Below, one piece after another: positions 4,302 through 63,646 of a stretch of DNA of 64,000 nt. Source of the DNA: Stegostoma tigrinum (Eukaryota); the NCBI RefSeq assembly GCF_030684315.1, contig NC_081391.1, forward strand, positions 21,226,629 to 21,290,628, given 5' to 3'. The notes beneath the pieces are model-generated. The model was not told the origin of the DNA, searched no databases, and saw nothing but the letters and a program-made list of their open reading frames with translations. How positions within the stretch are numbered: position 1 is the stretch's first letter; each line of letters starts with the position of its first letter. The position numbers and the translations under genes were made by a program.

Positions 4302-4561
4302 CCAATCACAGAATAACCATCCAGACCTGGCTCTCATCTCCACCTCTGATCAGCTCTGCTTAACACACCCTCCCCCTCTCTCTCATTGGTGCCTCTATGC
4401 ATGGGTGGCTCCTGATTGGCTAGCAGCAACTGTCAGTCATCATCAGTTCGGTCTCCCTCTGGGTGAGTGCCGGTTGTCTCAGGAGTAGAAACACAACAGC
4501 TTTGGGGATTGAGGCCTTTGTTCCAGAGTTGTCCTTGTGATTGTGAGCAGGAATAGTGAAG
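4302..4561 (+). promoter_or_regulatory. Ferritin copy 1 promoter and 5' leader (degenerate TATA)
   Basis: Block conserved before every exon 1: CCAAT (4302), CACACCCTCCCC, CATTGG, CTGATTGG. The TATA position reads TAGAAACA (4486-4493). Confidence 0.65.
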
Positions 4562-6949
4562 ATGGCTTCCCAAGTGTGTCAGAACTACCACAAGGACTGT
4601 GAGGATGCTGTTAACAAGCAGATCAACCTGGAGCTCTATTCCTCCTATGTTTACCTCTCCATGGTGAGCTTTGTGGAATTGAAGCCTGTGTGATAACAGT
4701 GTTGACCTGTTTGGGGTTTTTATGCTGGGTTAGTGACTTAGCCGTAGCATGTATTGTTTTCTGTGGCCCTTCCCCTGATGCAATCTCGTGCAAGTCCTAA
4801 CACTGACTCTCTGTTCAGGTTTTGAACACTGTCTTAATATACAACTGGCTCCTGGGTGTGGATCCCCAGTTGTCCATCTCGGGACAGTGTAGCCCTTGGT
4901 GATTGTTTTCATTGAACTCTGGAGGGTTGAGCTGGTTTTGCTGATAAATTTAACTTGGTTATATCCCTTTTCTTCAGAAAACCTTCCCTGGTAGGACACA
5001 AATGTATCCTTTTGTTTGAACCTTGCCCCATTTGCCAGACTGGCTTATGTTCAAGATCTAAAGTTCCCTTAACTAAAAACAGCAACTGCTGGAAATCAAA
5101 CAGCAACAAGAATAGCTGGAAAAGTTCTACAGATCTGCAAAGAATGGTGGAAGAAATTGGGTCAAATTTTGGGTCCACTGACCCTTGCTCAGTGTGTTTT
5201 GTGAGCTATGAAAAGTGGCACACACTTGAAATATTAACTCGTGTACAACAAAGCAGTTAGAATTCTGTGTGGAGTGGGTGGTAGGACACTAGGGTTATTC
5301 AGGTGGGTGATGGTGATAATGAGGCTGCTGGCTGAGATTTCTGGCTGTGTTAATGACTGACTGCATTATTCATAGCACTTCATTCAGTTGGACAGGGGTC
5401 TAACTGGTCTCCATGTGCAGAACAGGGATATGTAATGGTTATAGACAGCTGTCCCCTTTGTGCACCATGCCACACTCTATCGCACCATCTTACCGAAACA
5501 CAGGTGAGGGATTGCATTTGGCTTTTGTCCTTTTATTTCCAGAAGTCTGGCTAAGTATCTGTTATATGGGTTATAATCCATGGAAGGTGACTTCCTGGCT
5601 CTCTAGTTTTGTCCACTTAAATGTGGAGTCAAGATGGTGACTGGGTTAGTATCTGAGGAGAGGCATTGATGTATTTCAGACATTTCCCTTTCTTGCCTCT
5701 TTACCCCTCGACAGGTCTCTTACTTTGACCAGGATGATGTTGCCCTGCGACACTTTGCTGAGTTCTTTAAGGAGCAGTCCCATGAGGAACGGGAACATGC
5801 GGAGAAACTGATGGCATTCCAGAATAAACGTGGGGGCCGAGTCCTCCTGCAGGACATCAAGGTTGGATTCTGAAGCCTTCTGTTTGCAGCTTGTTGTGAG
5901 CAGCTACAATCGACTGGTATCTCCATCTATTTAGCTTCAGGATTGAACAAACCCTGAGTGAAGGGGAGGGTGTTCTCCAATAGGATTCCCTTTCAGGCAA
6001 AAGGAAATACTTTGTCCTTGTGACTCTTCAGCAGAAGGCAATTGAAATGAACCAGAATAGGGAGTAGATTTTGCTGTGAATGACTCTTTGAGACAAGGTG
6101 AGGTAACAAAGTATGAAAGGGAACTTTTGCAGGTGTGGAAACTAGCAGTGTCCAGCCTTTGTGAATCTAGGAGATGTTTCTGATAACTTGTGACAATTCC
6201 AATCACAACAATAGGAAAGCCAGGAATTACTTCCATTGGTACCTATTCTCTGCATGTGAATTCTGAGAATCTACATTCACAGTAGAATGTGTTTAGAAAA
6301 TTTCTTAATCCCTCAGTACAAAATCTAGGAGTCTTTCCCAAATTAACATTGGTTTGTAGTACCTCCTACAATGATGAGGGATGACTAACCAGTGTAGACT
6401 AATGACTCAACTACCTGCTGAATTGTGCTTTCTGTTCCTGCTACCCTCCCTCCAGAAGCCAGAGCAGGATGAGTGGGGCAATGGTCTGGAAGCAATGCAG
6501 AGAGCTCTGCAGATGGAGAAGGATGTGAACCAGAGTCTGCTGGATCTGCACAAACTCTCCTCTGGCCACACAGATCCTCATGTGAGTTTGTAAACTTTCT
6601 TCTTGGAAGAAAGTGGTGTGTTTGTGCACACTCTGGGTGAAAATCCAACTACCTCTCCAGCCTCCTGCAGGCTGTTAAAACAAACTTTCAAATACATCAC
6701 CTGAGTGGACCTCCACATGGTGGTGATCGTCACATCTGTCATGGGAGGTCACTTTCAGACACCTTTTAGATTCCTCTGAATTAATTTTGTCTTGTTTTCC
6801 AGCTGTGTGACTTCCTGGAGAGGCACTACCTGGATGAGCAAGTGAAGATGATCAAGAAGCTGGGAGATCACATCACCAACCTGAAGAGACTGGGAGCCCC
6901 TGCCAATGGCACGGGAGAGTACCTGTTTGACAGGCTCACACTCAGCTGA
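4562..6949 (+). CDS. Ferritin heavy-chain-B/middle-subunit-like, copy 1 (4 exons, 173 aa, intact ORF)
   Basis: Exons 4562-4663, 5715-5861, 6456-6581, 6803-6949, all GT-AG and phase 0. Protein [91 protein letters not shown]...[18 protein letters not shown]...[10 protein letters not shown]. Vertebrate ferritin exon structure and ferroxidase residues are present. Confidence 0.93.
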
Positions 6950-60988: not shown

Positions 60989-61250
60989 CCAATCACAGAA
61001 TAACCATCCAGACCTGGCTCTCATCTCCACCTCTGATCAGCTCTGCTTAACACACCCTCCCCCTCTCTCTCATTGGTGCCTGTATGCAGGGGTGGTACCT
61101 GATTGGCCACCAGCAACTGTCAGTCATCATCAGTTCTGCCTCTCTCTGTGTGACTGCAGGATGGTCCCAGGACTATAAATACAAGAGCCTGTGGGAGAGA
61201 GAGACTTAGTTCTAGAGTTTTCTTGGTGCTTGTGAGCAGGAATAGTGAAG
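60989..61250 (+). promoter_or_regulatory. Ferritin copy 10 promoter
   Basis: Same conserved block; TATAAATA 61174-61181. Confidence 0.75.
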
Positions 61251-63646
61251 ATGGTTTCCCAAGTGTGTCAGAACTACCACAAGGACTGTGAGGATGCTGT
61301 TAACAAGCAGATCAACCTGGAGCTCTATTCCTCCTATGTTTACCTCTCCATGGTGAGCTTTGTGGAATTGAAGCCTGTGCTATGATAGTGTTGACCTGTT
61401 TGGTTTTTACGCTGGGTTAATGAATTAGCTGTAACATGTATTATTTTCTGTGGCCCTTCCCCTGTTGCAATCTAGTGTAGGCCTTAACACTGACTCTCTG
61501 TTCAAAACCTGACCATTGTCTTCATGTCCAACTGGCTCCTGGATGTGGACGCCCAGCTTGCTGTCTCTGGACAATGTAACCCTTGGTGATTTTTCATCTA
61601 ACTCTGGAGGGATGATGTGGTCTTTGTCAATAACTAAATTTTAAAATTGGTTGCATTCCTTTTCTCAACAAAAGCCTTCCCTGGTGGAAACTTTTCCTGA
61701 CACAAATATACTCCTTTTTGTTTAAAACCTTGCCCCATTCACCAGACTGTCTTGTGCTCAAGATGTAAAGTTCCCTGAACAAAAAGAACAGCAGCTGCTG
61801 GACACTAAACACCAACAGAAAAGCTCTAAACATCTGGTTGAAATCCAAGCTCTGGGTCCACTGACCCTTTCTCAAGTGGCCTTGAGCTATGCAATGTGAC
61901 GAAAGAGGCACATTTTCACACTATGTATGTGATTTTTTTTTTCTCCCTAACAAAGCAGTTAGAATTCTGTGGAGTGGATGGTAGGACACTGGGGTTATTC
62001 AGGTGGGTGATGGTGATAATGAGGCTGCTGACTGAGCTTTCTGGCTGTGTTCACGAACACATGTCCCTTCATTCAGTTGGACAGGGGCCTAACTGGTCTC
62101 CACCTCCTGAACAATAGTGTTTCTAACCTGCAGAGCAGGGATGTCTAATGTCTATAGATAGCTCTCCACTTCATCAGGCACCATGCCACATGTACTGTCT
62201 CTCTTTCTCGCTCACACAGGCCAGGGATTGCATTTGCTTTTTGTCCTTGATTTCCAGAAAGCTGGTGAAATATCTGCACAAAGGCTGCTTTAGTATCTGT
62301 TGTTTGGGTTATAATCCATGGAAGGTGACTTCCTGCTTTGTCTGTTTTTTTACCACTTAAATGTGGAATCAAGATGGTGCCCAGGTTATTTCCTGAGTGA
62401 GGAGTGTCATTCACGAATTTCAGACAGTTTCCTTTTAACCTCTCTCCCTCCCTCCCTCCCTCCACAGTTCTCTTACTTTGACCGGGATGATGTTGCCCTG
62501 CATCACTTTGCTGAGTTCTTCAAGGAGCAGTCCCATGAGGAACGGGAACACGCTGAGAAACTGATGGCATTCCAGAATAAACGTGGAGGTCGAGTCCTCC
62601 TGCAGGACATTAAGGTTGGATTCTGAAGCCTTCTGTTTGTGTAGCTCTTTGTGAGCAGCTACAATCGACTGGTATCTCCCTCTATTTAGCTTTAGCATTG
62701 ATCAAATACTGTATGAAGGGGAGGCTGTTCTGCAAAATAGGCTTCCTTTAGGTGACAGGAAATAATCATCAATTGAGACTCACCAGAATAGTGAGTAGAT
62801 ATCAATGTGAATGACTCTCCTTTAGACAGACTGAGGGAACAAAAGCTGAGACAGGAAATTGTTGCAGTGTGGAAAGTAGCAGTGTCCAGCCTTTCTGAAT
62901 CTGGAAGATGTTTCTAACACCACAATCGTGAAGCCTATTCTCTGCATGTGAATTGAGAATCGACATGAACAGTAGAATGTGTTTAGAAAATTTCTTATTC
63001 CCTCAGTACAAAATCTAGTTGTCTTGAACAAATTCAAGTTTGTTTGTAGTACCTCCTACAATGATGAGGGATAACTAACCGATGTAGACTAATGATACAA
63101 CTGCCTGCTGAACTCTGCTTTCTGTTCCCACTTCCCTCCCTCCAGAAGCCAGAGCAGGATGAGTGGGGCAATGGTCTGGAGGCAATGCAGAGAGCTCTGC
63201 AGATGGAGAAGGATGTGAACCAGAGTCTGCTGGATCTGCACAAACTGGCCTCTGGCCACATGGACCCTCATGTGAGTTTGTAAACTGTATTCTCTCTCTT
63301 CCTTGGAAGAAAGTGATGTGTTTGTGCACTCTCTCTTGGTTTAAAAATCCAATTACCTTCTCCCAGCCTCCTACCGGCTGGTAAAACCTTTCAAAGGCAT
63401 CACCTAAGTGGACCTCCACATGGTGGTGATGGTCGCGTCTGTCATGGGAAGTCACTTTCAGACACCTTTTTGATCCTCTGGATTAATTTTGTCTTCCAGC
63501 TGTGTGACTTCCTGGAGAGGCACTACTTGGATGAGCAAGTGAAGATGATCAAGAAGCTGGGAGATCACATCACCAACCTGAAGAGACTGGGAGCCCCTGC
63601 CAATGGCATGGGAGAGTACCTGTTTGACAGGCTCACACTCAGCTGA
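61251..63646 (+). CDS. Ferritin heavy/middle-like, copy 10 (intact)
   Basis: Exons 61251-61352, 62468-62614, 63146-63271, 63500-63646; TATAAATA at 61174. Confidence 0.95.

Follow-up and report, generated by a model that had tools for sequence, protein, structure and literature searches.

A tandem ferritin array in the shark Stegostoma tigrinum: a candidate for ferritin production outside iron-responsive control

Ferritin clusters of sharks and other vertebrates

The amplification of ferritin genes in sharks is already known. In the available portion of their preprint, Sahm et al. (bioRxiv 10.1101/2024.09.09.611499) describe 155 'FTL' and 179 'FTH1' copies in the Greenland shark, arranged in three clusters syntenic with the white shark, the largest of which is reported to be ovary-specific. 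The accessible text of Yang et al. 2026 (PMC13214024) gives 59 FTH1b copies for the Greenland shark, five of them 5'-truncated, records more FTH1b copies in sharks generally than in rays or elephant fish (a species set that includes S. tigrinum), and interprets the expansion in terms of ferroptosis and longevity, some copies being active in fin and blood. The locus considered here is a stretch of 64,000 nucleotides from Stegostoma tigrinum (contig NC_081391.1, positions 21,226,629 to 21,290,628; hereafter the window), which holds ten units of an array that, like the shark FTH1b clusters as far as these are described in the partial sources, is tandem, intron-containing, distinct from FTH1a, and accompanied by 5'-truncated members. 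The reading developed below, which is favoured with modest confidence, is that the array mass-produces an iron-independent and slowly recycled ferritin store, probably in the ovary or oocyte and maybe from two subunits.

The available parts of the shark FTH1b papers regard the copies as a single family (FTH1b) or call them FTH1 and FTL, and do not mention an iron-responsive element (IRE), a lysine at position 23 (Lys23), a class with lysine at position 62 (Lys62) or exon-anchored recombination. The words 'iron-responsive' and 'ovary' are absent from the main text of PMC13214024, and the portions available of three further sources contained no ferritin term (10.1101/2025.02.19.638963), no FTH term (10.1101/2025.06.08.657570) and nothing relevant (PMC11719527). 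Searches that were not aimed at NCOA4 in sharks and that left subscription journals largely uncovered turned up no publication dealing with loss of the IRE, with Lys23 or with a Lys62 class among the ferritins of sharks.

Smaller clusters are recorded in partly available sources on other vertebrates: the Fth cluster beside Gys1/Ruvbl2/Nucb1 has four copies in X. tropicalis and seven in the newt, where it includes liver-expressed members (PMC13003380), and the hadal snailfish carries 14 copies of fthl27, which lowered reactive oxygen species (ROS) in cultured cells (PMC10746142). These amphibian and snailfish clusters are tandem and intron-containing as in shark, with far fewer copies, and their existence makes mammals the wrong baseline. 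The surprise implied by a comparison with mammals in the sequence-only reading, an earlier note made from this DNA without database searches, therefore does not hold, since large shark clusters (in a species set with S. tigrinum) and other vertebrate clusters have been published.

Amphibian and teleost ferritin M (PDB 1MFR and relatives) resembles the window proteins in giving the best PDB scores, in its ferroxidase residues and in E57/E64, but differs in that salmon M mRNAs carry an IRE and frog M has Arg23; nor do the trees join the array to frog M with support. The mammalian FTH1/FTL heteropolymer offers a parallel in that a ferroxidase-competent class, represented by the window, is accompanied by a Lys62 class, but the window copies lie outside the FTH1 clade and the Lys62 class mostly keeps E27 and H65. 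The invertebrate yolk ferritins of the snail Lymnaea and of Schistosoma are an egg-associated isoform, secreted in the snail, whereas no signal peptide was found in the array proteins of the shark, which belong to the vertebrate ferritins. The ferritin mRNAs of Schistosoma lack IREs, to judge from a title cited in PMC1488847.

Identity, expression and evolution of the array

A search of the window with the exons of its first gene located ten ferritin units, all on the + strand and with adjacent stops 4.9-7.6 kb apart, which are numbered in order of position (Table 1). Copies 1, 2, 3, 6, 9 and 10 are intact, each with four exons of 102/147/126/147 nt, GT/AG intron ends and a 173-aa frame that stops three residues before the 176-aa forms of other sharks and some S. 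tigrinum copies; copies 4, 5, 7 and 8 are damaged. The sequence-only reading had described ten same-strand, intron-containing copies, six intact and four damaged, a description borne out by the exon search. Its description proved right in each detail that was checked; what it overlooked was the recombination, the missing IRE and the Arg23-to-Lys change.

Carpet-shark ferritins were the top matches to an exon-2 query. The predicted product of copy 10 is 100% identical to S. tigrinum XP_059496719.1 (P0124), which matches PF00210 with an E value of 6.8e-40, while copy 3 is 100% identical to P0129 over 170 aa and copy 1 99.4% identical to S. tigrinum P0136. With an in-frame stop above each ATG, and with no hydrophobic N-terminus in the predicted proteins, the window copies are, as predicted from their coding sequences, vertebrate cytosolic ferritins with a ferritin domain, four exons and no signal peptide. 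The fold is certain from identities of 70% or more to solved ferritins, the best PDB matches being M subunits (279-282 bits, with H chains scoring at most 268.5).

Two trees of 71 and 42 rows were built from selected fetched proteins, with fused and most partial models left out and no L sequence included. In both, the copies of the window fall within an array clade of elasmobranchs (support 98/98, or 97/94 when one Callorhinchus protein is included), where they group with Pristiophorus, Heptranchias, Scyliorhinus, Heterodontus and lamniform array proteins. This clade stands apart from the FTH1 clade (97/89; 91/96), to which no window copy belongs, and from a gene annotated as 'heavy chain-like' (100/99; 99/98). 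The backbone relating the array to frog and teleost M was unresolved in both trees, so that no tree-based orthology to either can be claimed. In S. tigrinum and other sharks the 'heavy chain-like' gene lies on the array contig and FTH1 on a different contig; these two, a single 'heavy chain-like' gene that shares the chromosome of the array and FTH1 on a different chromosome, are likely to be the housekeeping genes. Counted by hand among the matches listed (at most 15 members per cluster), distinct array-type accessions of S. tigrinum number at least 65 on a single 26.9-Mb contig, a figure that may include isoforms and fused models; no Somniosus protein was among the matches listed. Five database entries bearing the name of Aeromonas or Salmonella ferritin (P0111, P0174, P0329, P0465 and P0468) group among the shark ferritins; they look like fish sequence that contaminated bacterial assemblies.

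All six intact copies keep E27, Y34, E61, E62, H65, E107 and Q141, the H-chain ferroxidase ligands, and the L-chain replacements K62 and G65 are absent, the window copies having E62 and H65; the intact copies thus encode a ferritin with a complete ferroxidase site. The nucleation carboxylates E57 and E64 (H numbering) expected of ferritin M are likewise present in six of six, but shark FTH1 has them too, so that they do not discriminate M.

A search with exon 4 and the 3' flank of copy 10 found 20 runs from 11 studies, four of which were aligned to positions 60700-64000, runs with a share below 0.2 being left out. In X16, a public run that shares its organism code with the best large runs, 42,381 of 714,730 contigs fall on copy 10; summed depth is 3.5-6.1 million for the four exon bins, as against 0-1,014 for those that are wholly intronic. 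GT..AG joints link exons 2 and 3 in 28 contigs and exons 3 and 4 in 16, and 101 contigs leaving exon 1 continue into the start of exon 2. At position 63600 about 70% of the X16 depth carries the base of another paralog, and exon variants of other paralogs are also present, which indicates that several copies are transcribed, the transcripts not being assignable to particular window copies. These data showed that genes of this array type are spliced and expressed. The earlier proposal of a dosage-amplified family is supported, silence of every copy having been named as the outcome that would speak against it. In run X1, which derives from a different species, a single contig of 697 nt covers the four exons at a depth of 377, and contigs with loose ends translating like the 'heavy chain-like' gene reach a depth of about 10,400, a hint that the array is dominant only in some samples.

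A minor exon-1-to-exon-3 joint (61351-63145) was recorded in eight X16 contigs with a depth of 9,460, corresponding to an in-frame skip of exon 2, and could stem from copies that, like copy 4, have a defective splice site. Separately, exons 2 and 3 are repeated in many gene models of sharks, 260-350 aa long (P0003, P0004, P0006, P0173, P0178, P0212 and others), and two exon-2 starts, as in models of the form e1-e2-e3-e2-e3-e4, occur in 31 of the 470 fetched proteins, two of them invertebrate. As all three introns are in phase 0, read-through into headless copies would keep the frame; no exon-3-to-exon-2 joint was present among the 15 joints listed (37 others lay outside that list), and annotation fusion is likely, being a simpler explanation than read-through splicing.

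Comparison of the 15 pairs of intact copies gave mean exon identities of 94-98%, in agreement with the near-identical exons noted earlier, and mean intron identities of 76-84% (intron range 60-97), with mean synonymous (dS) and nonsynonymous (dN) divergences of 0.100 and 0.019. The resultant dN/dS of about 0.19, set against the higher dN (0.023-0.067) of damaged versus intact copies, showed that the intact copies are under purifying selection, and with four of ten copies damaged the birth-and-death mode proposed in the earlier note is upheld. The closest relative of a given copy changes across exons: copy 9, for example, is 97-99% identical to copy 1 over its promoter, exon 1 and intron 1, 96% identical to copy 7 over introns 2 and 3, and 95% identical to copy 2 over its 3' flank. 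Trees from different introns disagree with each other, and the incompatibility of nearby pairs among 221 informative sites was 0.166 as against 0.341 +/- 0.008 after permutation, none of 500 permutations being as low. Exchange with its anchor in the exons, by unequal crossing-over or by conversion, was thus shown to act on top of birth and death. Duplication of units and exon-anchored crossing-over shuffle and homogenise the copies, with 5' deletion and splice-site loss yielding the damaged ones.

That the array is an assembly artefact, with haplotypes falsely duplicated, is scarcely credible. Four S. tigrinum array proteins are each listed for a pair of contigs, probably the chromosome together with an unplaced scaffold of 267 kb, so redundancy is possible elsewhere in the assembly. 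Within the window, however, gene-body identity over the 45 pairs ranges from 79.3% to a maximum of 96.5%, which excludes the false duplication that the earlier note had flagged as a danger, and long duplicated blocks are at 95% identity or below. The 139 contigs of DNA run X17 on copy 10 comprise 48 at 99% identity or more, 47 at 95-99%, 26 at 90-95% and 18 below 90%, so that 91 lie below 99%; the summed depth of this run, higher in exons than in introns, is not a copy number and was not used as one. Ferritin arrays are, moreover, annotated in many sharks.

Regulatory features and possible function

Each of the seven promoters present has two CCAAT boxes and a box at the TATA position. The six intact copies have that box 55-77 nt above the ATG; the leaders predicted from it are 25-47 nt long, fold weakly (-3.4 to -8.1 kcal/mol) and contain no upstream ATG. 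The TATA sequence is canonical in copies 2, 3, 6 and 10 and altered in copies 1 and 9, which nonetheless have an intact coding sequence and may be weak or differently started genes. Over the 15 intact pairs the core promoter is 91-98% identical, in 12 of them above the region further upstream.

IRE-regulated H, M and L ferritins of vertebrates are characterised by an IRE in the 5' leader, as in five of five salmon H and M mRNAs in the portion available of PMC4117605. No such element was found here, the start site being placed from the TATA box and contig cover. Rfam at its gathering thresholds reported no IRE, and no family at all, in the whole window; at E<=10 it gave no IRE around the promoters of copies 1, 2, 6 and 10, only matches at chance level; and a loop-and-stem scan detected no IRE near any promoter, its six IRE-like loops lying elsewhere, away from all of them. 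Depth in X16 drops to 748 in the bin upstream of the TATA box, and the fully spliced contig of X1 begins about 22 nt above the ATG. The CCAAT-CCAAT-TATA promoter would specify a leader with too little length and structure to accommodate an IRE, with the predicted consequence that translation escapes repression by iron regulatory protein and that output becomes the product of transcription and copy number.

A second control may also be altered. Lys23 is present in all seven copies with an exon 1, in place of the Arg23 of FTH1, and was found in 132 of 138 covered proteins of class A (the class of the window) and 65 of 79 covered proteins of a second array class, B; Arg23 was found in all 26 'heavy chain-like' proteins and, among the FTH1 proteins covered, in 77 of 79. 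These tallies draw on the 367 of 470 fetched proteins that matched a reference at 80% or more over at least 100 aa. R23 of FTH1 is essential for binding NCOA4, according to the part seen of a study in which it was tested as R23A (PMC4592949), and Lys23 may accordingly weaken NCOA4 binding and slow ferritinophagy.

Class B, encoded outside the window, has Lys62 in 97 of 97 proteins, versus Glu in 151 of 162 class-A proteins. Lys62 is an L-chain residue. The class (P0360, P0363, P0358, P0303 and relatives) makes up a separate clade (100/99) and occurs in sharks of the carpet, ground, horn, mackerel and sevengill groups, its S. tigrinum members lying on the same 26.9-Mb contig. Most members have Glu141 and keep E27, and H65 is present in 90 of 97. 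A class-B C-terminus forms the loose end of 30 contigs in X16, which places both classes in one run. This Lys62 class, co-expressed and encoded elsewhere on the same chromosome, could serve as the L-like partner in mixed 24-mers. It is a guess that classes A and B correspond to the 118 'FTH1' and 104 'FTL' copies of one preprint.

The suggested site of expression is the ovary, where large yolky eggs would be loaded with safely stored iron. This site was chosen because the Greenland shark preprint reports its largest cluster to be ovary-specific and because ferritin mRNA is abundant in fish ovary, ferritin being the predominant transcript of a coho salmon primary-growth ovary library in the part seen of PMC2262088. 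Among the high-output roles offered by the sequence-only reading, it is the oocyte or ovary that has the best outside support.

Several points weigh against an IRE-free, slowly recycled ovarian store. The ovary claim is one preprint sentence on another shark; activity in fin and blood is described for some copies of the Greenland shark in the available text of PMC13214024; X16 bears no tissue label; and array-type contigs also occur in X1 and X3, runs of other species. Expression is poorly measured by contig depth. A start site cannot be read from contigs, and the main basis for the short leader is the position of the TATA box; copies 1 and 9, with that box altered, may start elsewhere, and the IRE scans were run without a positive control on shark ferritin mRNA. 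Arginine to lysine is a conservative change, R23A being the only one tested, and the residue tallies include redundant, partial and related sequences that are not independent, with fused models adding misalignment. Class B mostly keeps H65, unlike the E62K + H65G mutant in which ferroxidase activity is abolished (PMC6929972, seen in part).

The alternative that the extra copies mainly shield somatic tissues from iron-driven oxidative damage, by buffering against ferroptosis, is unlikely. It has been proposed for Greenland shark FTH1b, it accords with the copies active in fin and blood (PMC13214024, in part) and with the lowering of ROS by snailfish fthl27 (PMC10746142, in part), and the intact ferroxidase site and the array-type transcripts of X1 and X3 would suit it. 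The array is nevertheless shark-wide rather than restricted to long-lived species, its depth in X1 is 377 against about 10,400 for the 'heavy chain-like' gene (a weak measure), and the model needs NCOA4-driven ferritinophagy when the array has lysine for the NCOA4 arginine. A high-output site in some other specialised tissue (epithelium, gland, erythroid or immune), served by the same IRE-free, copy-number mechanism, is quite improbable: X16, the run of extreme abundance, is without a tissue label and the newt cluster has its liver-expressed members (PMC13003380, in part), but the sole tissue-specific statement found for a shark cluster, in a source available in part, is ovary. It is very improbable that unequal crossing-over in a recombination-prone array produced the copy number largely as a neutral side effect, with few copies mattering. 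Four of ten copies damaged, two more with altered TATA boxes and heavy recombination would be expected on that basis, but selection among the intact copies, transcription of several paralogs, the likeness of the intact copies' core promoters, and the maintenance of two array classes across several shark orders all argue otherwise.

Within the favoured reading of an iron-independent ovarian store, a bolder form is put forward tentatively, as rather doubtful: a dedicated maternal system in which ferroxidase-active and Lys62 L-like classes have shed both IRE and NCOA4 controls and co-assemble into a stable oocyte store. If true, maternal ferritin would be an egg-specific H/L-like heteropolymer reinvented by amplification, and the ferroptosis and longevity interpretation would be recast as egg provisioning. 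The regulatory anatomy carries more weight than the amplification itself, as it offers a means of deciding between somatic protection from ferroptosis, linked to longevity, and the maternal provisioning of very large eggs with iron, in a question that concerns one of the largest shark gene expansions. Freed of the IRE and altered at its NCOA4 site, a vertebrate ferritin would be a natural case of uncoupling from iron feedback.

Features, repeats and spacers of the window

The coordinates of the ten copies and associated elements are collected in Table 1. The damage differs between copies. Copy 4, 89.6% identical to copy 10, has AT at its intron-2 donor and a hairpin repeat of about 220 bp inserted between TATA box and ATG, giving a leader with five upstream ATGs. 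Copy 5 is missing both its promoter and its first exon; it contains two stops, and its exon 4 starts with a 2-base deletion. Copy 7 is likewise without promoter and exon 1, a fragment of a long interspersed nuclear element (LINE) adjoining its intron-1 sequence; copy 8 has the identical junction, and 40803-44369 and 45778-49315 are 94.7% identical, which indicates that the headless unit was duplicated as such.

Table 1. Coordinates of ferritin copies and other elements in the window
Feature	Span	Strand	ATG	Promoter elements	Exons and remarks
Copy 1, intact	4231..6949	+	4562	CCAAT 4385, 4415; altered TATA 4486	4562-4663, 5715-5861, 6456-6581, 6803-6949
Copy 2, intact	10273..13533	+	10578	CCAAT 10421, 10451; TATA 10523	10578-10679, 12340-12486, 13012-13137, 13387-13533
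Copy 3, intact	18563..21172	+	18896	TATA 18819	18896-18997, 19957-20103, 20676-20801, 21026-21172
Copy 4, damaged	23563..27044	+		TATA 23800	24099-24200, 25882-26028, 26558-26683, 26898-27044
Copy 5, pseudogene	30879..32138	+			30879-31025, 31649-31774, about 31992-32138
Copy 6, intact	36879..39639	+	37212	TATA 37135	37212-37313, 38453-38599, 39142-39267, 39493-39639
Copy 7, headless	43544..44755	+			Exons 2-4 open: 43544-43690, 44235-44360, 44609-44755
Copy 8, headless	48490..49676	+		No promoter	No exon 1; exon-2 acceptor GG
Copy 9, intact mosaic	54104..56827	+	54435	Altered TATA 54359	54435-54536, 55616-55762, 56305-56430, 56681-56827
Copy 10, intact	60918..63646	+	61251	CCAAT 61072, 61102; TATA 61174	61251-61352, 62468-62614, 63146-63271, 63500-63646; last ferritin stop of the array in the window ends at 63646
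Spacer block	1..1084	+			As found after ferritin stops of other units
LINE fragment in spacer, reverse transcriptase	52053..53244	+			Pfam RVT_1, E 2.9e-21 for 52053-53162

No flanking gene was found within the 64-kb window, whose three unique stretches measure only 160-486 bp. Positions 1-393 match 33277-33669 (98.5% over 393 bp), about 1.1 kb past the stop of copy 5, and positions 1-2847 match 50799-53654 (95.0% over 2.86 kb), about 1.1 kb past that of copy 8, as had been noticed from the sequence earlier. Since the first base of the window thus lies in post-stop spacer, the array likely extends upstream, where a further ferritin copy is likely on this evidence.

The LINE fragment, which we take to be CR1-like, has homologues at 1255-2448, 29126-30100, 33902-35096, 41717-42884 and 46679-47832, and the long frames other than the RVT_1 one were read as repeat fragments or left unassigned (one frame being tested against Pfam). 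A repeat at 14648-15531 has inverted arms of 199 bp that are 99% complementary, and a shorter hairpin copy occupies about 23840-24070 in the leader of copy 4. The CTGATGA...GAAAC motif in the arms of this repeat resembles the minimal hammerhead ribozyme of Penelope-like elements; Rfam at gathering gave no match for it. Finally, a 0.6-0.9-kb block with 67-79% identity from unit to unit recurs about 1.3-2.3 kb after most stops (217-1084, with homologues near 8495, 15814, 22411, 28285, 40880, 45829, 51015 and 58160), which suggests an old repeat or an enhancer.

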